64,000 bases of DNA, taken from assembly GCA_041749335.1 (NCBI GenBank), contig JBGTBM010000008.1, positions 18,462-82,461 of the forward strand, written 5' to 3'. The notes under the pieces were generated by a model. That model was not told where the DNA came from. It did not search any database and worked only from the letters and a program-made list of their open reading frames with translations. The translations under genes and the position numbers were made by a program. Positions 11,715 to 64,000 of this stretch are shown here, in pieces (position 1 is the first letter of the stretch; every line of letters begins with the position of its first letter). The DNA is from Patescibacteria group bacterium (GTDB lineage: Bacteria > Patescibacteriota > JABMPQ01).

Positions 11715-12980
11715 TTATAAATTAAAATATTTACCAAATCGGCTGGCAGAATGATATGGTCCGATAATCGCTAAATTAAGTTTTCGGTTTACCATTACAT
11801 CATTGGCTACCCTGATTATATCGCTGGACTTAACTTGATCAATTAATTTGAATTTCCGATCAATGTCAATAATTTTTCCGGTTAAGATTTCTTGCAAGGA
11901 CAGCCATAATCCATAATCATCCGAACCTTCCAGCCCCATCATTGTTTTGCCTTTAATATATTCTTGGACTTTTTTCAACTCTTTTTCCGACACTCCTGTT
12001 TTTTTAATTTTGTTCAATTCGTTTAAAATAACTTGAATAGCTTTATCGATATTTTTATTATCAACTCCGGCATGCACCGCCAGATAACCCGAATCGGTAA
12101 AAAACTCAGCGTCACAGCGGATATAATAAGCCAATCCTAATTTTTCGCGAACAGAAATAAACAGCCGAGAGCTCATGCCACCGCCTAAAATAGCGGCTAA
12201 AATACTTAGGGCATATTTATCTTTGTTGTTGATATCATATCCCCGACAGCCCAGATATATATGAGATTGATCGGTCACCTTGTGATGAATTAATATTTCC
12301 GGCTTGGCTTGCTTTTCTCTCACTTGCTTTTTATCAATTATTTTCTTGCTTGCAAAACCCGAAAAATATTTACGCGCCAATTCCCGTGAAATTTCCGGCG
12401 TAATTTTTCCCGCGAGGCACACCACTAAATTATTGGCATGGTAATGATCATGATAATATTTCACAAAGTCTGCTCGCTGTATATTCTTGACAGACTTTTT
12501 ATTACCGATTATTAATCTTCCCGCTGGCTGTTTTTGATATAATAAACTCTCAAATAAATCGCCGACGTACATCATTGGGCTATCTTGATACATATTCATC
12601 TCTTCAATAATTACATTTTTTTCTCTTTCAATTTTTTCCGGTTCAAGTTTGGAATTTTTAAGAATATCTGAAATCATATCAAGGGCTCTTTCGGTATGTT
12701 TGGGAGTTACCTTGGCATAATAACCGGTATATTCTTTGGATGTAAAGGCGTTGTACTCGCCCCCCACTTCATCTAAATATTCAGAGATAGCGAGTGAAGA
12801 CGGCCTTTTTTCAGTACCTTTAAAAAACATGTGCTCCAAAAAATGAGATACGCCCGCCACCTGATCACGTTCATATTTTGATCCAACGCCAAATAATGCT
12901 AAAAGCGTTACGGTTTTGGCATCCCGTATCGGCGCAATAATGATCCGAGTTCCATTTTTATGTTTCGTTCGATAAAACAT
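11715..12980 (-). CDS. M16-family zinc peptidase (insulinase-like)
   Basis: Inverted zinc motif HFLEHMFFKGT (HxxEH), 421 aa. Confidence 0.8.
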   Translation of the reverse strand: MFYRTKHKNGTRIIIAPIRDAKTVTLLALFGVGSKYERDQVAGVSHFLEHMFFKGTEKRPSSLAISEYLDEVGGEYNAFTSKEYTGYYAKVTPKHTERALDMISDILKNSKLEPEKIEREKNVIIEEMNMYQDSPMMYVGDLFESLLYQKQPAGRLIIGNKKSVKNIQRADFVKYYHDHYHANNLVVCLAGKITPEISRELARKYFSGFASKKIIDKKQVREKQAKPEILIHHKVTDQSHIYLGCRGYDINNKDKYALSILAAILGGGMSSRLFISVREKLGLAYYIRCDAEFFTDSGYLAVHAGVDNKNIDKAIQVILNELNKIKKTGVSEKELKKVQEYIKGKTMMGLEGSDDYGLWLSLQEILTGKIIDIDRKFKLIDQVKSSDIIRVANDVMVNRKLNLAIIGPYHSASRFGKYFNL

Positions 12981-12986
12981 TATTTT

Positions 12987-14342
12987 TTATAAATTATCCT
13001 TAAAATATTCTCCTAAATCCGCAATTTTTATTTTTTCTTGACGCATAGAATCTCGATCGCGCACTGTAACTATATCGTTATCCAGAGTATCAAAATCAGC
13101 CGTGATGCAATAGGGGGTCCCGATCTCGTCTTGGCGGCGGTATCTTTTGCCGATATTGCCATTGTCATCAAATTCGCAGTGATAAACCGTCTTTAATGTT
13201 TCATAGACTTCCCGCGCTTTGGCAACCAATTTGGGTTTATTTTTTAATAAGGGAAAAACCGCGATTTTAACCGGAGCGATCGCCTTGGGAAATTTCATTA
13301 CTACTCTGGTTTCTTTTTCAACCGGCTCTTCTGAATAAGCCGATGATAAGGCAGCCAAAATACTTCTGTCCAAGCCGAAGGTCGGCTCTAAAACTTGAGG
13401 AATAAATCTTTTTTTGCTTTCCTGATTAAAATATTCTAATTTTTTACCGGAATACTTTGCGTGCTGCCTTAAATCAAAATCACCCCGATGAGCCATGCCA
13501 AAAAGTTCCGCAAAACCAAAGGGGTATTTATACTCAATATCAACCGTTTTTTGGGAATAATGCGCTCTTTTTTCGTCCGAATGCTCATATCTTTTTAAAT
13601 CCGCTTTTTTTGCCCCCAAAGACAGAGCAAATTGCTCTTGCGCCTGCAGCCAATTCTCAAAAAGTTTATCCCATTTGCTTTGGGGATCAATAAAGTATTC
13701 CAATTCCATTATTTCAAATTCCCTCAACCGAAAAATAAAGTTGCCTGCCACGATCTCATTTCTAAAGGCCTTGCCGATCTGCGCAATGCCAAATGGTATT
13801 TTTACCCGCATGGCATCAACCATATTTTGGAATTCAATAAAGATTGAGCCCGCAGTTTCCGGCCGCAAATAGATGTCTTCCTCATAGCCGTTCATTTGGG
13901 TCTTAAACATCATGTTGAAATTCCTCGCTTCAGTCCAATCGGATGCGCCGCACTCCGGACATTTAATTTCACTTTTAATTATTTTAGTCATTCCCGAAAG
14001 ATTGCCTTCCAAATCTTTACCGGTCGCTTCTTCAACCAAATGATCGGCTCGAAAGCGCTTTTTGCATTTTTTGCAATCTACCATAGCATCATTGAAACTT
14101 TCGGCATGTCCTGAAGCCTCCCACGCCTTAGGATGTATTAATATTGGCCCATCAATTCCAATAATATCGTCCCGATTATGAACAAAAGTTTTCCACCACA
14201 GATTTTTAATATTATTTTTAAGCTCTACTCCATAGGGCCCATAGCCATAAGAATTAGCAAAACCGCCATAGATGTCTGAAGCCGGATAAACAAACCCCCG
14301 CCTTTTACACAAAGCGACAATTTTTTCCATTAAGCTTGCCAT
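12987..14342 (-). CDS. glyQS: glycyl-tRNA synthetase, alpha2 (eukaryote/archaeal-like) type
   Basis: MEKIVALCKRRGFVYPASDIYGG N-terminus and class II core motifs; 451 aa. Confidence 0.85.
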   Translation of the reverse strand: MASLMEKIVALCKRRGFVYPASDIYGGFANSYGYGPYGVELKNNIKNLWWKTFVHNRDDIIGIDGPILIHPKAWEASGHAESFNDAMVDCKKCKKRFRADHLVEEATGKDLEGNLSGMTKIIKSEIKCPECGASDWTEARNFNMMFKTQMNGYEEDIYLRPETAGSIFIEFQNMVDAMRVKIPFGIAQIGKAFRNEIVAGNFIFRLREFEIMELEYFIDPQSKWDKLFENWLQAQEQFALSLGAKKADLKRYEHSDEKRAHYSQKTVDIEYKYPFGFAELFGMAHRGDFDLRQHAKYSGKKLEYFNQESKKRFIPQVLEPTFGLDRSILAALSSAYSEEPVEKETRVVMKFPKAIAPVKIAVFPLLKNKPKLVAKAREVYETLKTVYHCEFDDNGNIGKRYRRQDEIGTPYCITADFDTLDNDIVTVRDRDSMRQEKIKIADLGEYFKDNL

Positions 14343-16055: not shown

Positions 16056-16183
16056 TTTTGTGTTGTTTTCAATGAACGATCAAAATACTATAATATATTG
16101 TTATCTTGTTGTCAATCTTTTTTGGTAATGTGCACACACATTTTGCACTGTCTGCTATCCTCAACACGCTATGACAAAATCAT

Positions 16184-16252
16184 AAAAATTTAATCTCTGA
16201 ACCTAGTCAAAGGGTTAAATTTTTATAGCCTTCGACAGGCTCAGGCAATAAT
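16184..16252. repeat. intergenic repeat module X (copy 1)
   Basis: aaaaatttaatctctgaacct.gtc.aagggttaaattttatagccttcgac..gctcaggcaataat. It recurs at 16347-16413 and 58804-58873, with degenerate copies at 18262-18325 and 61632-61690. Contains stem gtcgaagg/ccttcgac. Confidence 0.7.
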
Positions 16253-16346
16253 TTAATTTTACGTTACTGTAAATTCAGGTGATTTGTCGCCAATATTTGT
16301 AATGTTATTATTTTATTTCTTTATCCAAGTTAATTAACTAAATAAT

Positions 16347-16413: not shown

Positions 16414-16437
16414 AATAGTTATACTAAATTTCCTAGT

Positions 16438-16595
16438 CCTCCTCCCCTCAGATGAGGGGAGGTGTTCCGATGTTACATCGGAACAGAGGGGTGCTGAAAA
16501 GATCTACGCCACCTTTTTAATTTTTTCCAAAGAAAAATGAACTGATTAATCTAACAAAGCAGGTTGAGAACCTGTCCTACTTTCTTCATTCTTCA
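16438..16595 (+). repeat. intergenic repeat module Y (copy A1): two conserved stem-loops plus a CU-rich tail; candidate structured RNA or regulatory cassette
   Basis: Contains cctcccctc-agat-gaggggagg and tgttccgatg-tta-catcggaaca hairpins, then gaggggtgctgaaaagatctac ... caggttgagaacctg ... tactttcttcattcttca. Near-identical copies at 18329-18487 and 61701-61877. Confidence 0.7.
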
Positions 16596-16804
16596 TCCTC
16601 CTATTTTATTTGTTTGTATCTTGTATCTTTTTTTGTTTCTTGTCATATTGTATCTCGTTTATTTTTTCCAAAAACAAGATAAAATTCTGCCCCACTTTAT
16701 TCATTATTCTTTATTCATTATTCAATTGCTCTAAATGTTTAGATAAAAAAACACCCCGCTTAATAACGAGGTATTTTGAATCAGTTTAATCTGTAAATCC
16801 TTGC

Positions 16805-18064
16805 TTATTTCTTTTTCTTTTTCTTTAAGAAGGCCGCGATGCCCACTACCAAACCTAAAGATAATACCGCAATTACAACTTTCCAGATGGTATTGCCGGG
16901 CAGTTCGGGGATAATTTCCTCTTCTTGTGGTTCAAGCTGTGCAAATGTAAAATTACTTCCAGAAGTATTTACAGCTTGCCTTAAATAATCATTACCACCT
17001 GCATTCTCTTCATAAATCACTACTGCACGGCTAGAAGAATCTGCATCAACAGAAACTAATCCATAGGTCGATCCAGAACTTTGGTCTACAGTAATATCAG
17101 CCAATACCGCACCGGTTTCATTCGTTTTAATCAATTCAACCTGAGGCGCTGAAGCTCCATCTGCATTTGAAAATGCTATTGCGGGACCGGTAGAAATAGA
17201 GGTAGCTTCTAAATCACCAACATTATCAGATAACGACTTGACTGTAGCTGCAGTAGCATATGTTGTTGCAGAATTAGCTGTAAATTGTAATAAATCCTTA
17301 TTTGTAGTTTCTTGGATAACTATAACGGGAAGATTATAGGTACTATCTTGCATTGCTATATCCATTTTGACTGGCATATCGGTAGTAGAAATTGTAATAA
17401 CATTAGTAGGTAAACCCGTCAGGTTATCATAGCCTAATTCAAAATTTCCTGTAACAGAGTCCTTCCCTATAAAATATGTATACGCTCTAGTAGGATCTTG
17501 CCAAGCCACTACTCCCGGATCTTTATATAACATATCTCCAGTAAGATAGTTTAGCTGAATACCTGTTCCATCATTCTTTATAGTTAATACTCTCACAGCT
17601 CCTGAAGTTCCTGCAGATGCACAATCAATGTATACTATTCTTGGATAAACCTCTCCTGGAGCAGTATATTCTGTCACAGCCCAAGCTGGACGATCTGTAA
17701 TTAAGGTTGGAGCATACGATACTATAGAAGTATCTAAATCCAAAGTTGCCAATCTTATATATGGGATTGTTCCAAGAATATTTTTATTTACATAATATAT
17801 TGCCAATTTATTGACACCCGAAAGTTTATGAACTGCTCTTACTTGTGTATAAGGCTGGCTGATGATGTTATCATAGAATGTAATTGTACCAGAAACATTA
17901 GTAATACAATCAATAGGATTATTCTCTCCAGCACGATTAAAACAAGTGTATGTGTCATTTCCCGATACGTCAGAAGCCATATATGTATAATCTGCTGCGC
18001 TCACACTGCCCGCCACGGCAAACATTGCCGCGAAAGCAAACAATGCAATGATTAGTTTTTTCAT
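16805..18064 (-). CDS. secreted/surface-anchored protein, paralog A
   Basis: Signal peptide MKKLIIALFAFAAMFAVAGSVSA. The body is rich in T/S/N/G, suggesting beta structure. C-terminus is EEEIIPELPGNTIWKVVIAVLSLGLVVGIAAFLKKKKKK. Confidence 0.8.
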   Translation of the reverse strand: MKKLIIALFAFAAMFAVAGSVSAADYTYMASDVSGNDTYTCFNRAGENNPIDCITNVSGTITFYDNIISQPYTQVRAVHKLSGVNKLAIYYVNKNILGTIPYIRLATLDLDTSIVSYAPTLITDRPAWAVTEYTAPGEVYPRIVYIDCASAGTSGAVRVLTIKNDGTGIQLNYLTGDMLYKDPGVVAWQDPTRAYTYFIGKDSVTGNFELGYDNLTGLPTNVITISTTDMPVKMDIAMQDSTYNLPVIVIQETTNKDLLQFTANSATTYATAATVKSLSDNVGDLEATSISTGPAIAFSNADGASAPQVELIKTNETGAVLADITVDQSSGSTYGLVSVDADSSSRAVVIYEENAGGNDYLRQAVNTSGSNFTFAQLEPQEEEIIPELPGNTIWKVVIAVLSLGLVVGIAAFLKKKKKK

Positions 18065-18212: not shown

Positions 18213-18328
18213 CAAAAAAATAATCCCTTAGCATGATCGAATGATAATTTTTTTGTCTAATCTTCGACCCGTCTGTCATAGCCTGGCATTGGCGGGCAGG
18301 CAGGCTCAGACAATATTTCTTACGTAAT

Positions 18329-18487
18329 CCTCCTCCTCTCAGATGAGGGGAGGTGTTCCGATGTTACATCGGGACAGAGGGGTGCTGAAAAGATCTACAC
18401 CACTTTTTTAATTTTTTTCCAAAGAAAAATAAACTTATTAATCTAAAAAGGCAGGTTGAGAACCTGTCCTACTTTCTTCATTCTTCA
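18329..18487 (+). repeat. intergenic repeat module Y (copy A2)
   Basis: cctcctctc-agat-gaggggagg and tgttccgatg-tta-catcgggaca stem-loops; each has one T-G position that is wobble-compatible only if read from the plus strand. Then gaggggtgctgaaaagatctac...caggttgagaacctg...tactttcttcattcttca. Confidence 0.7.
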
Positions 18488-18519
18488 AAAATTAAACAAG
18501 CGTTGATTTTTTTATTAGC

Positions 18520-18547
18520 GTAGGGACAACTCGCGAGTTGTCCCTAC
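18520..18547. promoter_or_regulatory. perfect 14+14 palindrome gtagggacaactcg/cgagttgtccctac
   Basis: Perfect inverted repeat between the tgt 3' end and module Y. It shares the half-site gtagggaca with the 18184 palindrome. Confidence 0.5.
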
Positions 18548-18572
18548 TGTTAAAATATATTTTAAATAGTCC

Positions 18573-32834: not shown

Positions 32835-33232
32835 GGGGATGACAGGCTTCGATAGAAATTTCAAAATGTATTATTGCAAACTGAGGCGCGCGATCCTCAT
32901 AAAACCTTGCGCAAAGTTATAAGTGCAAACTTACTAACTAAGGTAAAAGACAATGTTAAAGCTTTTGCTTCTAGCATGAGTCTTTCACCGATTGCAGCAG
33001 CATAAATCCTGTTGCCATTCGCCTTTTTCCGCCTGAGGGAGAAGAGTCGGGTGTCATATTTTCAGGCTAGATATTTTCTCCCGGCCCGAGAATTTATCGA
33101 AACCATATCGGCCTAAGCCTTATAAGTTTTTGTCTATTTTATACTTATCTGGCTGACAAAATAAATAGACTACGTTTGTAGACAATTTTATATTTAAATT
33201 TCTAGACGTGGGTTCAATTCCCACCATCTCCA
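32835..33232 (+). ncRNA. ssrA: tmRNA (ssrA); CCA not encoded
   Basis: 5' GGGGAUGACAGGCUUCGAUAG matches the tmRNA 5' consensus. The 3' end has a T-arm gtggg-ttcaatt-cccac, and the acceptor strand catctcc pairs with the 5' ggggatg through a G3-U wobble (alanine identity). It lies immediately downstream of smpB. A candidate tag ORF ends ...PIAAA-stop at 33003-33005. Confidence 0.75.
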
Positions 33233-33358
33233 CTTGATATAATCAATCTCTTTGGGATTTACTTATGCAATAAAATACATGAGATTAAATGAAGATGGTG
33301 GCATAACAATCAGAAATAATTACAGCAATTTATAATGCCCAAAATTTAAAATTTTTAA

Positions 33359-33604
33359 ATGTATTATTTGTATATATTAAAATGCTCAGATAATTCGCTC
33401 TATACCGGCATTACTAAAGATTTAAAATTAAGATTTTCAAGCCACCGAAATGGCACCGGGTCAAAGTATGTTAGATCCAGACTCCCCTTCAAGCACGTTT
33501 ATACTGAAAAATTTAAAAATCAAAGCGCTGCTTTAAAAAGAGAATTTCAGATTAAGCAATGGCCTAGAAATAAAAAATTTTTGCTATTAAATATTGAGCC
33601 ATAA
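33359..33604 (+). CDS. stand-alone GIY-YIG nuclease-domain protein
   Basis: MYYLYILKCSDNSLYTGITKDLKLRFSSH is the GIY-YIG motif; 81 aa; terminator-like hairpin at 33676-33700. Confidence 0.7.
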   Translation: MYYLYILKCSDNSLYTGITKDLKLRFSSHRNGTGSKYVRSRLPFKHVYTEKFKNQSAALKREFQIKQWPRNKKFLLLNIEP

Positions 33605-37720: not shown

Positions 37721-40282
37721 TTAAAAATTCCCCACGGCTACATAAGCTCCGCCGCGAAAATTTTCGTCATACGCAAAGAAATTGTTATAAATTTGCGTCC
37801 CGTCTTTCTCAAAAATCCTAATTTGCGGGCCGCCGCCCATTCCCGGACCGGTAATTAATTCAGCCTTACCGTCAAAATCAATATCAAATGCTTCTATATT
37901 AGCTCCGGTTTCCACGCCTTCCGGATAAGCTCGAAACTCTCCTAAAATAGTTTGTTCTTCGTTGTATTGATATATTTTTGTCCAAGCTTCGCCATTGGCA
38001 AGTTGAGACACCGCTACATCATCCCTGCCATCGCCATCAAAATCTCCAGCCGCCACATCCACTCCAGTTCTAGACTCGGGATGAAAAGCAAAAAATGAAT
38101 AAGGAAGCAAACTTCCGTCGCCTTTAAACATTCTCACATGAGGACCGCCTCCCGTTCCTGCGCCAGCAATTATTTCATCTATGCCGTCGCCATTAAGATC
38201 GCCTGCTGCAACTGTTACTCCTCCGCGAAAACCCGGATCAAAAGCAAAAAAACCGGCAGTTAATTTAGGATTGCCATCTTTGTCAAAAACTCGTATATGC
38301 GGGCCGCCGCCTACTCCGGCACCGGCTATAATTTCGTCAATGCCGTCGCCATCCAAGTCTCCGACTGCAACATTAACCCCGCCCCGAAAAGATTCTTGAT
38401 AAGCGAAAAACCCCGGCGACTGCACACTGCCGTCTGCCTTGAAAATTCTAATATGAGGACCACTGCCATCTCCAGTTCCCGCGATGATCTCATCTTTGCC
38501 ATTACCATCAACATCGCCAGCCGCTACTTTTACTCCATTGCGTACATATTCTTGATAAGCGAAAAAACCGGGATGCTGAAGATCTCCCAGGGGATTAAAC
38601 TGCCTGATCTGCGGACCTCCGGAAAACCCGGCGCCGGTAACTATCCTAGTATTACCAATTAAAAAATTTAAAATAGCGGGACTATTCTCCCAATTACCTA
38701 CGCTATTTTTTGCTCTGGTTTCAATTTTATGGATTCCTTTTGATAAAACAGCTGTAGTAAATTTGAAATCCTCCCGCGACTGATTAAACTTCCCATCAAC
38801 CGCCTCGGCTCCCTGCCAAGACCCACCGTCCACACGATATTGAACGGTGCTGATTTCATCAATAGTCATATCATAAGATAGGCCGCTTCTACTAGTGCTA
38901 TAATAAGGATTGAGATTCTCCAGTTGATACACTTCCGCCGAACCATAAATAGTGGGAGTCGTATCGCTGGAACTGCCGCTTGATCTAATTATAGTATTAG
39001 GATAAGTATCGAGTAAATCAGGAATATTATCCTGATCGCTATCACGCCATCCGATTTGCCCCTTGGCGTAATAATCAATCTGTCTATTAACGAAGGGTGC
39101 GACTCCACCTCTCATTAAGCTTGGATGATTGCTAGCGCAAGATCCGCCGCTGGGATTATATTCGCTATTCTGATTTTGAATATTTAAATACCCCACGGAA
39201 CGATCACAGGGCTGATAGGCAGAATAATATTGATCTAAAGCAAAAAAAGTATGACCTATTTCATGCGCAAAAACAGAATCCATATTACCGATTCCGTAGC
39301 CATTATTATCATATGTCATAACCATAAAGGGTCCGCCATAATATGAATAGGCAAATTTACCGTCCTTAAAGCGGCCATCCCCGTCATTCTTGCTATCAAC
39401 TATAAAAACCGCAAATGCCCAATCCGAATTATCCTTTTTAATTAAATCGTTCAAATACGCTCTCACCTGATCAAAATAGTCGCCATTTGAATATCCCATT
39501 TTATTCATAATTTCATTAATCCACAAATCTTGCCCTCCGCTTTTAGTCCAGGAATCTCTGATAATGGGCTCATATTTAGTTTTCGCACGGCTATCTGTGC
39601 GACCATTAATAAAATGATAAGTAAAAGACAAATCGGCTAAATTTCCTCCCATGTCCTGCCACCACTTAGCGCCCATTTTTATTTCCCCGTAAACTTGTTC
39701 TTCCCGACCGCTTTCCCAATTTTCTATCGACTTGTCTAAGCTGCCATCACTTTCCACCAAAAATGCGGCGATAGATATTTTCCCCAACATAAATTCTGAA
39801 GTATCATAAAACCCTCCGCCGTCTGCCTCTCCGGGAGCATCTTCCGGCCCCCCTATTTCTCCAAAATTTTGAAATAATAAATCTCCGCCGATGGGGCCAG
39901 GTTCATTGCTGGGAATTTGATTAACGTCGGTTAAAGCATAATTCCATATTTTAGCGGAATTTTCAGCCGCCTGGCCGTATGGTCTTACCTGATTGATATC
40001 AATAACACTCTTGGAATAAAAATTAATCTTAACTTTATTTTTCAATAAATTAAATTTTTCGTCACTGATGCCAATCTCAATAATTTCATGAGTATAGCTT
40101 GACTTTAATTTTCCATTTAAACTTGGCAGCTCTTCAATAATCTGATCTTTTTGGTCGGTAATAACAAAATAATCAACATTAAAATTTTGGTCTTCTTGTG
40201 ATTTTACATTTTGCGCATCAAAATAAAATACCCCAAGAGAAAAAAATAAAATAAAAAGGGAAATTGGTATAAGTTTTTTCAT
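37721..40282 (-). CDS. secreted zinc metalloprotease-like protein with C-terminal FG-GAP/VCBS beta-propeller repeats
   Basis: Signal peptide; HExxH in VFAHEIGHTFFALDQYY. Seven or more repeats of the type AAGDVDGNGKDEIIAGTGDGSGPHIRIFKADGS...GFFAY (FG-GAP). Confidence 0.7.
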   Translation of the reverse strand: MKKLIPISLFILFFSLGVFYFDAQNVKSQEDQNFNVDYFVITDQKDQIIEELPSLNGKLKSSYTHEIIEIGISDEKFNLLKNKVKINFYSKSVIDINQVRPYGQAAENSAKIWNYALTDVNQIPSNEPGPIGGDLLFQNFGEIGGPEDAPGEADGGGFYDTSEFMLGKISIAAFLVESDGSLDKSIENWESGREEQVYGEIKMGAKWWQDMGGNLADLSFTYHFINGRTDSRAKTKYEPIIRDSWTKSGGQDLWINEIMNKMGYSNGDYFDQVRAYLNDLIKKDNSDWAFAVFIVDSKNDGDGRFKDGKFAYSYYGGPFMVMTYDNNGYGIGNMDSVFAHEIGHTFFALDQYYSAYQPCDRSVGYLNIQNQNSEYNPSGGSCASNHPSLMRGGVAPFVNRQIDYYAKGQIGWRDSDQDNIPDLLDTYPNTIIRSSGSSSDTTPTIYGSAEVYQLENLNPYYSTSRSGLSYDMTIDEISTVQYRVDGGSWQGAEAVDGKFNQSREDFKFTTAVLSKGIHKIETRAKNSVGNWENSPAILNFLIGNTRIVTGAGFSGGPQIRQFNPLGDLQHPGFFAYQEYVRNGVKVAAGDVDGNGKDEIIAGTGDGSGPHIRIFKADGSVQSPGFFAYQESFRGGVNVAVGDLDGDGIDEIIAGAGVGGGPHIRVFDKDGNPKLTAGFFAFDPGFRGGVTVAAGDLNGDGIDEIIAGAGTGGGPHVRMFKGDGSLLPYSFFAFHPESRTGVDVAAGDFDGDGRDDVAVSQLANGEAWTKIYQYNEEQTILGEFRAYPEGVETGANIEAFDIDFDGKAELITGPGMGGGPQIRIFEKDGTQIYNNFFAYDENFRGGAYVAVGNF

Positions 40283-47600: not shown

Positions 47601-48326
47601 TTAAAAGGTTACAAAATTAAATCCACATTGTTTTGTATCGCTGGATATCGGATCTTCTATATACACCAAAAGTTTTCCCATCATACTACCCACGCTGGGC
47701 AAACAATCATCATCAATTGGCGTGACTATGGTGACATAGTCAGAATAATAATAATCAATGCCCTCAATGGCAATTTCGTATCTATGGGTCCCGGCATTCC
47801 ATGAACACACAACATTACTAGTTCCACCCAGCGTTGATCCATCATCATCACAAATACCATAAGCTACAGGTAGTCCTACTCCATTCGGTCCGGTTAGTTC
47901 ATTGACAATAGTTTTACCGCTTACCGTTAAATCAGAATTCAAAGTTGTACTGCCAGTTACGGTTAAATTACCATAAACGCTTACATCATCATTCAATTTT
48001 ATTGGCATACTGTCACCAGGACCCGATGTGGCTCCCCGCCAGATCATGCCATCAATTCTAACATCATCTCCAATGGTAACCGGAACCGGTTTATCATTTT
48101 CATCGGTAGTTTCATTAATAATCGTTCCATTAAAAAAGGTTACGCCACCGACTCCCTGTTTGCCCACTTTGATTGAATCAAAAATTCCCGTTCCATTTAC
48201 AATTAGATTTTCATCATAAATAACGCTAGAAGCAGGCTGCAATACATCCCCTGTAGAAGCAGAAGCCAGCGCAACAAAAGCAAAAATACCAAAAAATACT
48301 GCGATTGTTCCTAATGCTTTTTTCAT
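47601..48326 (-). CDS. secreted protein, paralog of 57665..58669
   Basis: Signal peptide; a shared N-domain of about 100 aa (LQPAS.IY.ENLIVNG.G.F.S...G..G.GGVT.FNGTIIN....PVT.GDDVRIDG.IWRG). Confidence 0.6.
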   Translation of the reverse strand: MKKALGTIAVFFGIFAFVALASASTGDVLQPASSVIYDENLIVNGTGIFDSIKVGKQGVGGVTFFNGTIINETTDENDKPVPVTIGDDVRIDGMIWRGATSGPGDSMPIKLNDDVSVYGNLTVTGSTTLNSDLTVSGKTIVNELTGPNGVGLPVAYGICDDDGSTLGGTSNVVCSWNAGTHRYEIAIEGIDYYYSDYVTIVTPIDDDCLPSVGSMMGKLLVYIEDPISSDTKQCGFNFVTF

Positions 48327-56783: not shown

Positions 56784-57599
56784 ATGAAAACTAAGACTCA
56801 AACCAAAAAACCAACGAGGACGATCAAGCGCAAAACACAGCACAATTACGAAAGATTCAGAATTTTTAACTTAATCATGGGCTTTTTGCATCTGATGCAA
56901 GGAATTATCATGTTGATCATCAGCAACGATTTTAAGCTGCCGATCAATTCAGCTTTTATCCAATTTAACGCCACCACTTTAAAGCTCGCTCCGGTAATAG
57001 AAAAACTATATGAGCTCCAAATCGGACCGATTATCGCCGCCTTCTTGTTTTTATCTTCACTGGCTCATTTCTTGCTGACTCTGCCCGGTATTTATGACTG
57101 GTACGTAGAAAATTTAAAAAAAGGAGTCAATTTTGCCCGCTGGATGGAATATTCCCTAAGCTCTTCCATTATGATCGTAGTTATCGCCATGCTAGTGGGA
57201 ATCTACGACGTAGCTAGCCTAATTTTGATCTTCGGCCTTAACGCCTGCATGATTTTCTTCGGCTGGCTGATGGAACTGATCAATATGTACACTAAAAAAA
57301 CCAACTGGATTGCCTACTATTTTGGCTGTTTCGCCGGCCTGATCCCCTGGGTTTGCATCGGTTTATTCCTGGCAGGCGCCGGTAGCGGAGACGCCAAGCC
57401 GCCCACTTTTGTTTACTATATTTTCTTCACAATTTTCTTATTCTTTAATACTTTTGCCGTTAATATGATTTTGCAATACAAGAAAATCGGACCATGGAAG
57501 AACTATCAATTCGGCGAAGCAATGTATATTCTGTTAAGTTTAGTCGGTAAATCACTGCTGGCTTGGCAGGTCTGGGCGGGGACATTAAGGCCGCTGTAA
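56784..57599 (+). CDS. heliorhodopsin
   Basis: Seven TM helices with the family's conserved blocks: ARWMEYSLSSSIMIVVIA (TM3 with the Glu counterion), FGWLME, YYFGCFAGLIPW, and the TM7 retinal-Lys context YILLSLVGKSLLAWQVWAGTL. The cytoplasmic N-terminus is basic, consistent with inverted topology. 271 aa. Confidence 0.85.
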   Translation: MKTKTQTKKPTRTIKRKTQHNYERFRIFNLIMGFLHLMQGIIMLIISNDFKLPINSAFIQFNATTLKLAPVIEKLYELQIGPIIAAFLFLSSLAHFLLTLPGIYDWYVENLKKGVNFARWMEYSLSSSIMIVVIAMLVGIYDVASLILIFGLNACMIFFGWLMELINMYTKKTNWIAYYFGCFAGLIPWVCIGLFLAGAGSGDAKPPTFVYYIFFTIFLFFNTFAVNMILQYKKIGPWKNYQFGEAMYILLSLVGKSLLAWQVWAGTLRPL

Positions 57600-57664: not shown

Positions 57665-58669
57665 TTAGTCCGGAGAGCTTTTTGAATATTCTATTTTGAA
57701 AGATTCAACTCCTAAATTGCTTGGGATCGTACCGCTGCTTGAACACGAAATGCGATAATTGTGATTTTCATAATCTATAACAGGATAAGTAATCGTACTG
57801 GTAGATACCGGCTGTGCGCTGGTTGATGGACTTAGCGGCTGGGTGGTTACGGAGGCCATCTGCGAATAGCTCAAATCATAATTATGCCGCAACAAGCTGC
57901 AAGAAATATGTTTTGCTGGATCATTATCATAAAATATCGCAGTTATTTTTTTAATTTCTGCGCCGTCGGACAAATCAAGATTCCAGTGAGCCCTCATTAT
58001 AGTCGCAGCGCTTCCCCCGCGACAAACAAAATTATCCATATAATCGATATTAACTCCCGTGCACGCGAATCCATTAATGCCCTGATAAAAAGTTTTGGCG
58101 CTATTATAGGAAAATTCCGGAGATTTCAATTCTCCGCTCAATGTCCCGCCGGACAAAGGCAGATATTTGCTAACTGTAATATCATTGGGAATATCAGTAT
58201 CATCCAACCCCTCAACCGCATTCACTGTCAAAGTATCGGCGATATATAAATTCCCGCCGAAATCACCGTCTTTAGCATATATTTTTTTCCAGCGATTAGT
58301 GGCTGATCCTAAATCGTTAACATTGGTGGTTGTAGGTATTGCCGTATCAGAAATTTTTAAAGGCATCCCGTCTGATGTTCCCTTTGATACACCCCTCCAT
58401 ATCTCTCCGTCAATCCGCACATCATCGCCGAAAGTAACCGGCACGGCTTCTCCAATATTTATAATTGTGCCATTAAAATAAGTAACGCCGCCAATACCCT
58501 CCTCTCCGATTCTAACAGACGCAAATTTGCCATAACCATTAACGATTAAATTTTCATTATAAATAATATCTGAAGCAGGCTGGAGAAGGTTCGTTTCAGA
58601 AGCGATTACTGATTCCCAACAAAAAAACATCCCCAATAGAAGTGTTGTAATTATGATTGTTTTTTTCAT
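57665..58669 (-). CDS. secreted protein, paralog of 47601..48326, with a longer C-terminal domain
   Basis: Signal peptide; the same N-domain of about 100 aa (LQPASDIIYNENLIVNGYGKFASVRIGEEGIGGVTYFNGTIIN...PVTFGDDVRIDGEIWRG). Confidence 0.6.
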   Translation of the reverse strand: MKKTIIITTLLLGMFFCWESVIASETNLLQPASDIIYNENLIVNGYGKFASVRIGEEGIGGVTYFNGTIINIGEAVPVTFGDDVRIDGEIWRGVSKGTSDGMPLKISDTAIPTTTNVNDLGSATNRWKKIYAKDGDFGGNLYIADTLTVNAVEGLDDTDIPNDITVSKYLPLSGGTLSGELKSPEFSYNSAKTFYQGINGFACTGVNIDYMDNFVCRGGSAATIMRAHWNLDLSDGAEIKKITAIFYDNDPAKHISCSLLRHNYDLSYSQMASVTTQPLSPSTSAQPVSTSTITYPVIDYENHNYRISCSSSGTIPSNLGVESFKIEYSKSSPD

Positions 58670-58803
58670 TTTGTTTTGGTTATTTAAATTTTTAATAAAT
58701 ATTTCGTCATCGCGAAGAGCGCAGCGACAAAGCCTGTCCGCCGAAGGAGGGCCTGCCCGCCGAAGGCAGAAATTTCATTATCCTAATTTAATCGCCAAAC
58801 GAT

Positions 58804-58873
58804 AAAAATTTAATCTCTGAACCTGTCGAAGGGTTAAATTTTACATAGCCTTCGACTTCGCTCAGGCAATAAT
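58804..58873. repeat. intergenic repeat module X (copy 3)
   Basis: aaaaatttaatctctgaacctgtcgaagggttaaattttacatagccttcgacttcgctcaggcaataat: about 90% identical to 16184-16252, with a perfect gtcgaagg/ccttcgac stem. Confidence 0.7.
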
Positions 58874-58898
58874 CTATCTTCACGTTGTTATAAAATTA

Positions 58899-59345
58899 CA
58901 TGGGATTGTTTCGTCCCGACGTAACGTTGGGACTCGTAATGGCGTAAATATAGAACGTCATTGCGAACGACCAGAGGGAGTGAAGCAATCTCGTCTTATA
59001 CAATATCTTCAAATAAATCTTTCCAATCCGGATTAAATGAATTAATTAACTTCATTTTGTTTTTCCTTGAACCGGCTTTTATCTGTTTCTCTCTGGTAAT
59101 TGCATTATAAGGATCAGAAAAAGCTTCATAATAAACCAACTTGTCAATATTATATCTTGCGGTAAAACTTCTTTTTATAAATTTATTTTTATGTTCAAAT
59201 ATTCTTTTTGCTAAATTACTGCTTACTCCCGTATATAAAACTTTATTATTGTTATTAGTCATTATATAAACAATATATAATTTTTCTTCCATTAAATAAT
59301 GTAATAAATAAACATGGGATTGCTTCGCTTCGCTCGCAATGACGT
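58899..59345 (-). mobile_element. GIY-YIG mini-cassette bracketed by inverted repeats
   Basis: 16-bp inverted repeats acgtcattgcgaacga (58955-58970) and tcgctcgcaatgacgt (59330-59345; 15/16 match) flank the GIY-YIG ORF. A direct repeat catgggattg(t/c)ttcg sits at 58899-58913 and 59313-59327. Confidence 0.5.
58996..59292 (-). CDS. stand-alone GIY-YIG nuclease-domain protein
   Basis: LYIVYIMTNNNNKVLYTGVSSNLAKRIFEHKN (GIY-YIG); 98 aa. Confidence 0.7.
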   Translation of the reverse strand: MEEKLYIVYIMTNNNNKVLYTGVSSNLAKRIFEHKNKFIKRSFTARYNIDKLVYYEAFSDPYNAITREKQIKAGSRKNKMKLINSFNPDWKDLFEDIV

Positions 59346-59610: not shown

Positions 59611-60033
59611 ATGCCGCGCGATAAAAAAATCAGCCTAAATATCACCCAGCCAATAATGGTTTATAACCCCGTTAAGCTTTATCAAATGCACGCTTTATAC
59701 GAAATTATCAATAAATTTAGCGTTATAGACCAATTTTCCAAACGCTGTTTTATTTGGTTATTGGAACATTCCGAGCGCCTCACCCGGCCGGTTTTTACCC
59801 GCGTCCCCCTGGCCACTCATCGCTTCATTTGCGACGACGCGCGCCGCATTACCGACGTTTGGCATCTTAATTTGGTGCTCAAATGTATGGATTCTTTCAT
59901 GAAATTATATAGCCCGGATCCCGACCCGGATTGCCCCGACTGCATTGTCCAAATAAGCGTCAAGTCGATCCAAGGGCCTGACAACCTAGAATTGCCCTTT
60001 GATCCAGAAAAGATCGCTTTAATCGCTCTTTAA
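59611..60033 (+). CDS. hypothetical protein, GC-rich gene
   Basis: 140 aa; SD GGGAGGA 5 nt upstream; GC about 50%. Cys-containing C-terminus DPDPDCPDC; no recognised motif. Confidence 0.45.
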   Translation: MPRDKKISLNITQPIMVYNPVKLYQMHALYEIINKFSVIDQFSKRCFIWLLEHSERLTRPVFTRVPLATHRFICDDARRITDVWHLNLVLKCMDSFMKLYSPDPDPDCPDCIVQISVKSIQGPDNLELPFDPEKIALIAL

Positions 60034-60095
60034 TAATCCACCTTGCGTGGATTTTTTATTTACATAGAGACAACTCGCGTGGATTTTTTATTCAC

Positions 60096-60190
60096 GTAAA
60101 GACAATTCACGAATTGTCTCTACAAAAAACACCCCGCCGGAAGCGAGGTGTTTTAGAATCTGTTTAACTTGCCTGCCTTGGGCAGGTCTG
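60096..60190 (-). terminator. conserved 3' module of paralog B: imperfect palindrome, rho-independent terminator, and stop-proximal hairpin
   Basis: Palindrome gtaaagacaattc-ac-gaattgtctctac (60096-60123). Hairpin aacacc..ggtgtt preceded on the plus strand by an A-run, which is a T-run after the hairpin on the minus strand (60121-60157). Hairpin cctgcc-ttg-ggcagg (60172-60186). A near-identical module lies at 61907-62000 after paralog C. Confidence 0.55.
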
Positions 60191-60202
60191 TTCAATCATT
60201 GC

Positions 60203-61456
60203 TTATTTCTTTTTCTTCTTCATGAAAGCGGCAATACCGACTACTAAGCCTAGAGCCAAAACTGCGATTAATACTTTCCATAAGGAATTGGAAGGAAGTT
60301 CAGGAATAGACTCGCCCTCTTCTTGCTCTTGATAAAGCGGAGTTGGAGCTCCGGCATTAATAGTTGAATATAGTCCGTCTAGAATAGAAATATCACCAGT
60401 TGAGTAGGTAAGAACTGACTGGTTGATGGAATTAAATCCGGCATAAACAATCGAGTTAATATAATCGGTGTCAGAATTAGTAATATTTGTAGTTGAAACC
60501 GCCGAACCGTCTGATTTCAAACTGATATCCTGTTCCAAATAGTTAGTATCTTGATCAACAATAGTAACCATTACCTGTGCGGTATTAGCCGCATTAGTTA
60601 TAGCATCAAATTTCATAGCAGCTGCAACCGTACCAACATTTGTTAATTGATCAACATCATAAACCGAACCATCGAAATCAGCTTCTTTAAAAATATTGCC
60701 TTCAGCGGTTCCGGTCTGATAAACGCTAGTAACTCTGCCATTATCCATGCCAATCGCAACGATGCCGGAAATGTTAGAAGTTAAAGTATTATCAACTACA
60801 ACTGAGTCATATGTAGCAGTATCCGTGGAATAATTAAAACCTGTTGAATATACATCATCTAATGAATCCATAAAGTATACCGTATAAGCAATTTGATCGC
60901 CACCGGTCAAATAGACATCATGTACTGATGTTGTATCTGAATATTCTATTACATCATAACCCCATGCGTCAGATACATTGCTAATTAAATTTAACTGGCT
61001 TGGACCTTCTGAAGAATTCGCAAGGAAAACCGGATATCCCGCCGAATCAATACTGTCTGACATTACTGCGTCCAATGCATCACTATTCGCAACAACATCT
61101 GATATTTCTCTTGGAGCTACTGATGGACCTAGAATTTTATAGTTTACAACATGTAAATCATTCGTAGCATCAATATAGGCATACCACGCATAATCAGTAC
61201 TCTGATATGTAATTCCAACCAAACTATCTACATCAGTTTCCACGCTTTCGTAAACTGTTGTGGTCGCATCCTTAACAATAAGATCAATATTGCCGGCATC
61301 TGTTAAAACTGCGGAAACGATATAGGCGTTAGTGGCATCATATATATCCGTATCACTATCTATAATAGCTTCGTCTGAAATCTCAGTTGCACTAACACTA
61401 CCCGCAACTGCAAACATTGCCGCGAAGGCAAATAATGCAATAATTAGTTTTTTCAT
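60203..61456 (-). CDS. secreted/surface-anchored protein, paralog B
   Basis: The first 23 aa (MKKLIIALFAFAAMFAVAGSVSA) are identical to paralog A, with near-identical nucleotides. C-terminus QEQEEGESIPELPSNSLWKVLIAVLALGLVVGIAAFMKKKKK. Confidence 0.8.
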   Translation of the reverse strand: MKKLIIALFAFAAMFAVAGSVSATEISDEAIIDSDTDIYDATNAYIVSAVLTDAGNIDLIVKDATTTVYESVETDVDSLVGITYQSTDYAWYAYIDATNDLHVVNYKILGPSVAPREISDVVANSDALDAVMSDSIDSAGYPVFLANSSEGPSQLNLISNVSDAWGYDVIEYSDTTSVHDVYLTGGDQIAYTVYFMDSLDDVYSTGFNYSTDTATYDSVVVDNTLTSNISGIVAIGMDNGRVTSVYQTGTAEGNIFKEADFDGSVYDVDQLTNVGTVAAAMKFDAITNAANTAQVMVTIVDQDTNYLEQDISLKSDGSAVSTTNITNSDTDYINSIVYAGFNSINQSVLTYSTGDISILDGLYSTINAGAPTPLYQEQEEGESIPELPSNSLWKVLIAVLALGLVVGIAAFMKKKKK

Positions 61457-61631
61457 TATTTTTTAGTTAATTAATTTTTTTTAATAAGATCTGGTTGGTA
61501 AGTCGACCGCGAGATTACCAAATGCTAAAAAAGAGTAATTTCTTTTTTATTAGATAATTATAGCACAAATAAGCTATTTTAAAAAGATATTTATCCACAA
61601 AGTGCTTTTTCTTGTTTTTTTATTATTTTAC

Positions 61632-61690
61632 CCTTCGAAAAATTGGGGATTAAATTATGCCTAGCCTTCGACTGCAATCAGAAAATATTT
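61632..61690. repeat. degenerate module X copy
   Basis: attaaattatgcctagccttcgactgcaatcagaaaatat aligns with the 3' half of module X. Confidence 0.4.
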
Positions 61691-61700
61691 CTTACGCATT

Positions 61701-61877
61701 CCTCCTCCCCTCAGATGAGCCTGTCCGCCTTTGGAGGAGGGAGGTGTTCCGATGCATATCGGAACAGAGGGGTGCTGAAAAATCTACGCTACCTTTTTTA
61801 ATTTTTTTCCAAGAAAAATAAACTTATTAATCTAAAAATGACAGGTTAAAAATTTGCCGTACTTTCTTCCTTCTCCA
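61701..61877 (+). repeat. intergenic repeat module Y (copy B)
   Basis: Same order of elements as the 16438 and 18329 copies. Hairpin 1 carries a 17-nt insertion (gcctgtccgcctttgg). Hairpin 2 keeps the stem tgttccgat/atcggaaca but with a different loop (gcat versus tta). Confidence 0.7.
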
Positions 61878-61906
61878 AAAATTAAACAAGCGTGGATTTT
61901 TTATTT

Positions 61907-62000
61907 GCGTAAAGACAATTCACGAATTGTCTCTACAAAAAAACACCCCGCCGATAGCGAAGTGTTTTGGAATCTGTTTAACTTGCCTGCCTTGGGCAGG
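61907..62000 (-). terminator. conserved 3' module of paralog C (palindrome plus twin hairpins)
   Basis: gtaaagacaattcacgaattgtctctac (61907-61936); A-run then aacaccccgccgatagcgaagtgtttt (61937-61968); cctgcc-ttg-ggcagg (61986-62000). Confidence 0.55.
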
Positions 62001-62017
62001 TCTGCGTAATCATTGCT

Positions 62018-64000
62018 CTATTTCTTTCTACTTTTTGCTCTGGTTTTTCTTGTTCGTACGGTTTTAACCGCTTTTTTGCTTCCGGAAGCCTTAGTCTTAG
62101 CCTTAACTGATTTCACTCCCCTTTTCCTTAATACCGCCGCAATGGTAATCACCGCGCCCATGGACATCAAAGCGATAATAACCTTCCAGATGATATTGGT
62201 AGGAAGTTCGGGAACAGTCGGACCTTCGTCCTGCTCGTTTAGCTGCTCGGGAACAGTCTCGCCTTCGGACATCGCAAAAAAATCGTCAGTTGTGGTGCCT
62301 TCCACTCCCCAAGTATAGGTTTCAACATCCAAGCTGCTTAGGCTGACCGTCGGACTAATAATATCTCCGGTTTGAATAACGGTTTTAGTGCTTGCGCCGG
62401 TTGCTTGAGTAATTTCCTGCCTGACTAGGCTGGTACCATCATAATAAACCGCAACCGCCTTGGTATCATCAGCTAACTCCACGGCGGAAATATCGGTAGT
62501 ATTAGCAAGTGTTTCCAGAGTTGTGGCCGTATAAGCGCTGCCATTATAGGTAGCTGACTTTACCGCCAAAGCATTGGTTTGATAAACCACCTCAAGAGCG
62601 GAATTTCTGACACCGGCCGCTTCAATATCAATGGTAGCGGCATCCATGGCTTCAATGGTAACGGGCGTAATTGCAGCGCTGCCAGCCGCCGCGAAAGATC
62701 CGGTTTTTAAATCAAGATCAGAAGAGTCTTGATAAGCAACATAAATATTAGTAGTCCCATCATAAGCTACTGCCAGCGGCGCGTCATAAACCGCGGCATT
62801 GGTTATAGCTGAACTTGTGCTATCGCGATATATGTATCCGGTACTGCCAATCGCATAAAATATAATCGGCTTATCGGAATATGTTTCGCGCGCAAAAGCG
62901 GCATTAAAATTCACATTACTGGCTACGGTAGTATCTGAAATCAAAGCCTCGCCATCCAAATCATAATGCACCACATGGGCTTCTGTTGGAGAAGATGTCT
63001 TGGTATAACCAAAATAAATACGAGTGGAATCCAGCGGATCTTGCACTACACCCGCCCCGCGCATTAAAGCAAGATTAGTTCCCGTCCTAACATTTGGAAT
63101 AGGAGTAACTCCGCCCGGACCTTGCCAATGAATATCAATGCTGGTTCCACTATTAACCGATAAAGCCGCTATATAATTATGGACTGAGTCAATAACCACT
63201 GTTTGAATATTTCCTAAGTTTAAAGTTTGAGTTGTATAAATACCAACTGCTCCATAACACAAACCGGTACTTTGGTTTCTATAAATAGTAACAAATTTGT
63301 CTGCTCCCAAATTAACTACTTTTACAGTATCTATGCTGGTTGAATCAAAAATTTCACTATTTCCCCAAATTATGCCATTCCCACTAATAGTGCCTACTTT
63401 ACTCGTTCCATAACTAGAATTATCGTCATCGGCATATGACGCAATAATAGTATTTGTATTTAATATTCCTGCCGAAGGTTCCGTAGCACCATTAGTCCCA
63501 TTGGAGATTATTGAAGGGTTGCCAAAATTTAATGTATCTGTTCCTAAAACAGAGCCAACTACCGCCAACCCCTTGTTAATAGAACCGTAATAAGGCTGAT
63601 AAGTAACAGCAAAACTAGTGCTTGTTAATTTAACTATTGATGTCCAAGCTGATGCATTCTGATTATCAATTATTTTAGGTAAACCAAAAGAAGTAATTTC
63701 ATTACCTGAAACATTTCCTACGATGGCTGTCGCCTTTTGAGTATTGGTATCGCTATAAGCTATAACAAATTTATCTGAAGACAAAGCAGCTACATCGCTA
63801 TATTCACTACCAGTGACATAATTATTTGATCCTCCAAAGGTAATTCCCGTGCCATCAATTGAACCAACTATGGCTGTTCCATATTGCTCGCTGGAGCCAT
63901 ACCCGTAGGAAATTACAATTTTAGTAGAAAGTAGCGCAGATATATTAACATAAAATGCTCCGTCATCTTCGAAAAATTGAGTAGCAGCACCCCAGCCAGC
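62018..64000 (-). CDS. large surface-anchored protein, paralog C; 5' partial, N-terminus beyond the window end
   Basis: The frame stays open to position 64000 (no stop upstream of the TTG the ORF track used). The body is T/S/G/N-rich. C-terminus TVPELPTNIIWKVIIALMSMGAVITIAAVLRKRGVKSVKAKTK...SRKK. Confidence 0.65.
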   Translation of the reverse strand, partial: AGWGAATQFFEDDGAFYVNISALLSTKIVISYGYGSSEQYGTAIVGSIDGTGITFGGSNNYVTGSEYSDVAALSSDKFVIAYSDTNTQKATAIVGNVSGNEITSFGLPKIIDNQNASAWTSIVKLTSTSFAVTYQPYYGSINKGLAVVGSVLGTDTLNFGNPSIISNGTNGATEPSAGILNTNTIIASYADDDNSSYGTSKVGTISGNGIIWGNSEIFDSTSIDTVKVVNLGADKFVTIYRNQSTGLCYGAVGIYTTQTLNLGNIQTVVIDSVHNYIAALSVNSGTSIDIHWQGPGGVTPIPNVRTGTNLALMRGAGVVQDPLDSTRIYFGYTKTSSPTEAHVVHYDLDGEALISDTTVASNVNFNAAFARETYSDKPIIFYAIGSTGYIYRDSTSSAITNAAVYDAPLAVAYDGTTNIYVAYQDSSDLDLKTGSFAAAGSAAITPVTIEAMDAATIDIEAAGVRNSALEVVYQTNALAVKSATYNGSAYTATTLETLANTTDISAVELADDTKAVAVYYDGTSLVRQEITQATGASTKTVIQTGDIISPTVSLSSLDVETYTWGVEGTTTDDFFAMSEGETVPEQLNEQDEGPTVPELPTNIIWKVIIALMSMGAVITIAAVLRKRGVKSVKAKTKASGSKKAVKTVRTRKTRAKSRKK

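Follow-up and report, generated by a model that had tools for sequence, protein, structure and literature searches.

We analysed a 64,000-nucleotide stretch of DNA from a Patescibacteria group bacterium (GenBank assembly GCA_041749335.1, contig JBGTBM010000008.1, positions 18,462 to 82,461 of the forward strand; hereafter the window), which carries three genes, A, B and C, whose predicted products share a C-terminal module that we refer to as PELP-CTERM, or the PELP tail. In this module an acidic (or Gln-rich) linker leads into the motif [IV]PELP-x-N-x-[IL]WKV, which precedes a hydrophobic helix and a tail rich in Lys and Arg. All three open reading frames (ORFs) lie on the minus strand at the coordinates reported in the initial annotation of this DNA, which had also described the common tail, and C runs off the end of the window, since positions 62018-63997 are free of in-frame stops. 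In window coordinates, the genes and their parts are:

16805..18064, minus strand: gene A, 419 amino acids (aa), with a Sec signal peptide, a body modelled as a 7-bladed beta-propeller and a PELP tail
17996..18064, minus strand: signal peptide of A (MKKLIIALFAFAAMFAVAGSVSA), with the same amino acids as that of B
16808..16912, minus strand: C-terminal module of A (IPELPGNTIWK, membrane helix, KKKKKK)
16748..16777, minus strand: terminator-like hairpin 3' of A
60203..61456, minus strand: gene B, 417 aa, with signal peptide and tail as in A and a body without detectable similarity to that of A
61388..61456, minus strand: signal peptide of B, with the same amino acids as that of A
60206..60307, minus strand: C-terminal module of B (IPELPSNSLWK, membrane helix, KKKKK)
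62018..64000, minus strand: gene C, 3' part, at least 659 aa, with predicted tandem beta-propellers, a PELP tail and a long basic cytoplasmic extension
62021..62215, minus strand: C-terminal module of C (VPELPTNIIWK, membrane helix, 37-residue K/R-rich tail)

The back-translated motif PELPxNxxWK matches the window three times, against 0.00 matches expected from 100 shuffles. The three bodies are rich in T, S, D and A and poor in K and R. The three proteins had been described as members of a paralogous family, a label that their bodies do not bear out: once stripped of signal peptide and tail, these show no significant similarity to one another by BLASTP (E > 0.1), and profile-profile comparison with hhalign yields probabilities below 40%. 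What the bodies do have in common is a fold class: in structure models of moderate confidence (predicted local distance difference test score, pLDDT, of about 62-63), A forms a 7-bladed beta-propeller and the visible part of C forms tandem propellers. Full-length orthologues of C (P0006, P0008 and P0013) are 794-841 aa long.

The tail extends well beyond these three proteins. An exhaustive search of 1.84 billion representative proteins, using a profile built on the final ~50 residues, identified 24 clusters at E <= 0.001, and for 17 of these E was <= 1e-10. Two of the 24 are eukaryote-like repeat proteins and false positives, leaving 22 real clusters (at 50% identity), in every one of which the tail lies at the extreme C-terminus, the protein ending 5-40 residues past the helix. 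Apart from singletons, the bodies without their tails make up at least four groups unrelated to one another, namely C-type propeller repeats, a Cys-rich family, A-type propellers and S8 subtilases. Assigning contigs to one genome by common sample, coverage and GC content, we count at least six tail proteins each for sample SRR28170473, which has A, B, C, the tail-bearing subtilase P0019, P0020 and P0022, and for assembly ERZ4787356, where they lie on NODE_1 and NODE_5140 at similar coverage. Two Logan contigs from run SRR28170473 (L001 and L002) are 100% identical to the window, and a further contig, L008, keeps the order of C followed by B seen in the window, with a subtilase gene preceding them.

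Outside this set the tail is scarce. A pattern derived from the family alignment found no tail in GTDB genomes, taken as one per species for 185,579 species, and no relatives among the matches listed, at least 600 in each case, from Joint Genome Institute (JGI) metagenomes and from viral contigs. A stricter DNA pattern applied to the JGI metagenomes returned one additional true tail (L034) and two chance matches. Word-indexed protein searches gave almost only self matches, whether the query was A, the alignment of the tails or that of the Cys-rich family, and are therefore uninformative about the distribution of the tail. A literature search on CPR (candidate phyla radiation) sorting signals and on the sample accessions found nothing specific.

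In an alignment of 23 tails, both prolines and the leucine of P-E-L-P are present in 23/23, the glutamate in 21/23, and the tryptophan and lysine of W-K in 22/23 each, with most positions conserved at more than 3 bits. The conserved position that follows PELPx is occupied by N in 16 tails, S in five and G in two. Nearly all positions of the helix likewise reach about 3 bits or more, among them a G18-x-x-x-G22 pair in which glycine is found in 19/23 and 18/23 tails, and the helix is followed by a cluster of K and R that is extended in C-type and S8 subtilase members to 10-40 residues. In the AlphaFold2 model of A the helix spans residues 393-417 and begins two residues past N391, so that the conserved N/S/G is predicted to sit where a helix N-cap would be. 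An N-glycosylation sequon within PELPxN was considered and rejected, N-x-S/T being absent.

Comparing the codons for residues that are the same in two tails, we found that 21/28 differ between A and B (15.8 +/- 2.4 expected at saturation), 10/19 between A and C (11.3 expected) and 8/16 between B and C (9.1 expected). Given this saturation of the synonymous sites, the tail peptide has been kept by long-term purifying selection and not by recent gene conversion; that tails are kept while the bodies cannot be aligned likewise indicates that selection acts on the peptide. The PELP tail is a modular element under purifying selection that is carried by unrelated proteins bearing signal peptides.

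We propose that PELP-CTERM is a lineage-specific, modular C-terminal domain for surface sorting or anchoring in a narrow clade of uncultivated bacteria that probably belong to the CPR/Patescibacteria, a reading to which we assign a probability of roughly 50%. Criteria for recognising tripartite C-terminal sorting signals from sequence have been published (bioRxiv 10.1101/2023.06.07.544157): the domain lies at the C-terminus and recurs within a genome, no fewer than three of its signature residues are invariant, and it includes a membrane helix and a basic cluster. The PELP tail displays this whole set, with its position at the extreme C-terminus, at least six copies per sample or assembly on at least four unrelated groups of bodies, its signature residues, its helix and its K/R cluster. 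As judged from the protein sequences, an N-terminal Sec signal peptide would export the propeller or protease body, after which the helix and poly-Lys segment would stop transfer, leaving the protein tethered by a short acidic stalk to the outer surface of the cytoplasmic membrane. Because P-E-L-P, the N/S/G position, W-K and the helix with its GxxxG are conserved on unrelated proteins, a single common partner probably recognises them. This partner could be a dedicated processing enzyme, with a cleavage site in or close to PELPxN, that passes the protein on to the envelope. A single candidate was seen, an unclassified sortase of the same genomes, the alternative being an intramembrane protease.

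The initial annotation had already viewed the tail as a candidate sorting signal. The tripartite layout, the wide range of bodies and the nearby sortase partly support that view; cleavage and a cognate enzyme are inferred, and an uncleaved anchor is plausible. We hold the chances that the module is a processed sorting signal to be about evenly balanced. More tentatively, and at rather less than even chances, the module may be the recognition signal of a new CPR enzyme-signal pair, involving either a non-LPXTG class of sortase that acts on [IV]PELPx[N/S/G] or an intramembrane sorting protease.

A search for sortase and exosortase homologues, which the initial annotation had suggested, found a sortase gene in two related contigs and none in the window:

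L005 14477-15103 and L007 15842-16492: sortase of 208-216 aa, directly after the L10-L7/L12 genes and 3-4 kb from tail genes

L005 derives from ERR6043686, and the same sortase protein is encoded on a 551-kb contig of ERZ4787356. L007 comes from SRR28170473, the sample of the window, and its sortase is also found on a 300,524-bp NCBI contig; from the common sample and similar GC content (37.7% against 37.1%), L007 and the window probably belong to one genome. Gene order is kept in both contigs, with YceG followed by two or three tail genes, L10, L7/L12 and the sortase. The protein matches PF04203 and scores above the cut-off of the general model TIGR01076, passes none of the class A-F models, and has His, Cys and Arg in place when aligned to solved sortases. 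The relatives found in the GTDB genomes scanned are all at <=35% identity, the best being on a Candidatus Yanofskybacteria contig, and their genomic context is uninformative. Among CPR genomes, over half encode a sortase (PMC6744442). In the ~190 kb of DNA sampled from this lineage, a C-terminal helix with a basic tail was found on real genes only as PELP/PQLP or PEF types, and no LPXTG motif was seen. A salt bridge between a Glu of the sortase membrane helix and a Lys of the substrate was considered and rejected on topology.

The PEF type is represented by a paralogue from the Cys-rich family (L005 11580-13004; L007 13060-14556, P0026) that lies within the tail-gene cluster upstream of the sortase in both contigs and ends in VPEF[AS]SY[KR], a helix and KRKKK. 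This variant is homologous to the PELP tails, aligns with them almost without gaps, and has the linker, V-P-E, a Gly position and the basic end in common with them.

Several observations weigh against a processed signal, and against the sortase as its enzyme in particular. The window contains no TLxTC-type motif and no tblastn match to the sortase of the lineage, and its scanned ORFs encode no sortase, exosortase, archaeosortase, rhomboid or CPBP domain; L006 and L008 carry tail genes but no sortase; no archaeosortase appears among the Pfam annotations of L005-L008, nor any enzyme on the short contigs that encode the divergent members P0023 and P0018. The sortase neighbourhoods of L005 and L007 are syntenic orthologues and thus amount to one independent observation, in which the ribosomal genes L10 and L7/L12 separate the tail genes from the sortase. 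The variant VPEF tail lacks both LPxN and WK. Strong conservation of the helix is untypical of sortase substrates and points towards an intramembrane partner: conservation within the helix, together with a motif close to it, has been linked to intramembrane enzymes and not to sortases of the A type (bioRxiv 10.1101/2023.06.07.544157). The long cytoplasmic tails (10-40 residues) of C-type and S8-type proteins would be unusual for a discarded signal. N, S and G are classic helix N-cap residues, and since the modelled helix starts right after them the motif could be purely structural; cleavage at or near PELPxN is itself deduced from sequence. Overall, we consider it less likely than not that the sortase of L005/L007, the sole candidate observed, is the processing enzyme.

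A permanent, uncleaved type I membrane anchor would account for several of these points, and we regard it as a serious rival whose odds fall somewhat short of even. PELPxN would then be a box that starts or caps the helix at the membrane surface, the GxxxG helix would self-associate or pack against a shared membrane scaffold, perhaps to organise a surface layer, and the basic tail would act as a cytoplasmic stop-transfer or interaction segment. The start of the helix in the model of A, the conservation of nearly all helix positions including G18 and G22, the long cytoplasmic tails kept by C-type orthologues and the window without a visible enzyme all fit such an anchor, and the saturated synonymous sites, which show selection on the peptide, are silent on its purpose. 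A plain anchor, however, would not need an invariant P-E-L-P and W-K, and the module has every feature by which processed sorting signals have so far been marked bioinformatically. Moreover, these small genomes retain a sortase, and no other substrate-like tail was seen in the ~190 kb.

Far less probable is the idea of gene conversion or cassette-like recombination among paralogues, which the initial annotation had put forward from the conserved ends and shared flanking DNA, and under which these ends would be a by-product and not the result of selection for a signal. The following features outside the tails bear on this idea, the repeat being given as context and not as part of the signal:

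60077..60203, minus strand: conserved 3' flank of B, with hairpins and a terminator, 92% identical to the C flank
61890..62016, minus strand: conserved 3' flank of C, 92% identical to the B flank
16434-16595, 18325-18487 and 61678-61936, no strand assigned: dispersed intergenic repeat

Shared flanking DNA is indeed present, as blocks just 3' of the stop codons of B and C and as the three copies of the dispersed repeat. Further hairpin-rich intergenic copies lie at 16177-16273 and 58797-58894, the copies being 81-94% identical. Such non-coding segments are more alike than the coding tails, which adjoin the B/C flanks with a nucleotide identity of only 61%, against 92% in the flanks themselves. 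The signal peptides of A and B, which had been described as nucleotide-identical, agree in all amino acids (23/23) but not in nucleotides (88% identity): eight of 23 codons differ synonymously, below the 13.1 +/- 2.0 expected at saturation. Homogenisation, or constraint at the nucleotide level, is weakly possible at the 5' end and in the 3' flanks of B and C, and constraint or local homogenisation of the terminator/hairpin block may be the cause of the flank likeness; the B/C block recurs at 92% identity in L003, which comes from another sample. For the coding tails the recombination idea is largely refuted, their codons being as divergent as random synonymous choice would make them and the same tail being carried by proteins that are unrelated and come from several genomes and samples. 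Because the repeats also adjoin unrelated genes and occur in other loci, they look like dispersed elements.

The repeat region at 18300-18560 on the minus strand folds as RNA with a z-score of -4.6, and L001 and L002 terminate beside the repeat copy at 18325-18487. An Rfam search matched transfer-messenger RNA (tmRNA) alone and none of the intergenic repeats; the tmRNA, at 32835-33235 on the plus strand, has a long 26-residue tag peptide (ANLLTKVKDNVKAFASSMSLSPIAAA). Two small stand-alone ORFs with a GIY-YIG nuclease domain lie at 33359-33604 (plus strand) and 58996-59292 (minus strand), the second adjoining the repeat-rich region downstream of B.

The tail was also compared with described sorting signals, and it matches none of their models above cut-off. 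No sorting-signal model of NCBIfam or Pfam matched the whole tail proteins, Pfam gave nothing relevant on the tails alone (PF00746 did not match), and most tails match no NCBIfam or Pfam sorting model even below threshold. The sub-threshold scores are those of PEF-CTERM (TIGR03024; 16.6 for A, 8.3 for B and 10.7 for C against a cut-off of 23, with no match for the two VPEF-variant tails), LPXTG_anchor (TIGR01167; 14.3 and 13.9 against 15.9, at profile positions 12-34 only, which cover the helix and basic part), Heimdall-CTERM (20.6 against 24, for one PEF variant tail) and, as the sole PEP-CTERM match, the cyanobacterial subfamily model TIGR04155 (12.5 against 21.6, in the helix part).

LPXTG signals and their sortases (TIGR01167/PF00746; PF04203) resemble the PELP system in the tripartite layout, with a hydrophobic segment followed by a basic cluster, in the L-P-x core with a spacer of 3-4 residues to the helix, and in the Sec signal peptide, and the related genomes encode a sortase with catalytic His, Cys and Arg near tail-bearing genes. 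They differ in that LPXTG, or a class-specific pentapeptide, has Thr at position 4 and Gly, Ala or Asn at position 5, whereas [IV]PELPx[N/S/G]x has N/S/G at position 4, a variable position 5 and no Thr-Gly; in the invariant P-E upstream and W-K downstream; in the strong conservation of the PELP helix sequence itself; in the hidden Markov model (HMM) score below cut-off; and in a sortase that fits none of the class A-F models. With PEP-CTERM/exosortase and PEF-CTERM/archaeosortase C (TIGR02595, TIGR03024) the PELP tail shares a start with [VI]-P-E, a motif near the helix, conserved helix residues, a basic C-terminus and occurrence several times per genome on unrelated proteins, and the VPEF variant lies in the same gene cluster as PELP tails. 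In contrast to these families it has neither a P-E-P signature abutting the helix nor P-E-F, is Lys-rich, not Arg-rich, and has the additional L-P-x-N-x-x-W-K segment; neither an exosortase nor an archaeosortase was found in any sampled DNA of the tail-bearing lineage, and the host appears to be a CPR bacterium with peptidoglycan genes, neither an archaeon nor a typical diderm. PEF-CTERM is an archaeal family. Orphan CTERM domains (Loki-CTERM NF033507, Heimdall-CTERM NF045529 and WGxxGxxG-CTERM NF038039) are likewise short C-terminal homology domains on many surface proteins of a restricted lineage, and neither they nor the PELP tail have an established processing enzyme; they differ in signature, and the PELP tail is far narrower in distribution. 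That the tail is a divergent member of a described family, an LPXTG cell-wall anchor or a PEF-CTERM/PEP-CTERM, is accordingly very improbable, the sub-threshold scores, the L-P-x core and the PEF-type paralogue in the same cluster being outweighed by matches that all fall under curated cut-offs, by positions 4 and 5 of the motif and by the lack of exosortase and archaeosortase in the sampled DNA. The tail signature is new and its host range very narrow; a tripartite C-terminal architecture for sorting or anchoring is already known.

Members of the CPR/Patescibacteria probably live in attachment to other cells, and to our knowledge next to nothing has been established about how they display surface proteins. 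A tag found on propeller or lectin-like proteins and on a subtilase marks the surface proteome of this lineage, and with a tail HMM, proteins at present all annotated as 'hypothetical' could be given a name. The tail also offers a ready candidate peptide with which the orphan sortase can be tested. If an enzyme-signal pair of the kind proposed above is real, it would be the first defined pathway of surface display for this CPR envelope; if the enzyme is the sortase, the motif of EEIIPELPGNTIWK should dock with its scissile bond at Cys198 of the sortase ectodomain, and if the tail is instead a permanent anchor, peptides such as VLIAVLALGLVVGIAAFMK would be expected from abundant mature protein. 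The signal is very rare, with 22 real clusters in 1.84 billion representative proteins and no occurrence in 185,579 reference genomes, and so has a narrow reach unless variants, such as the PEF type, are widespread.

Further features of the window and of the related contigs were noted. A second family of secreted proteins is encoded at window positions 47601-48326 and 57665-58669 (both minus strand), at L004 1075-1995 and at L008 1412-2323 and 4625-5845; its members have a conserved N-terminal segment, 'LQPAS..Y[DN]ENL.VNGTG...GVGGVTFFNGTI', with no Pfam match and no C-terminal anchor, and flank the tail-bearing subtilase in other loci. A conserved ORF of ~140 aa, without a Pfam match, lies at 59611-60033 (plus strand) in the window and at 12718-13152 (minus strand) in L008, in each case convergent with the final tail gene and immediately 3' of it; that gene is B in the window and the A-like P0004 in L008. 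An ORF at 37721-40282 encodes an 853-aa surface protein with FG-GAP repeats and contains, at 38019-38566 (minus strand), four diverged tandem repeats of ~156-159 nucleotides. Finally, a full-length heliorhodopsin gene (PF18761, E = 1.6e-97) is present at 56784-57599 on the plus strand, in what appears to be a small-genome bacterium of the CPR type.

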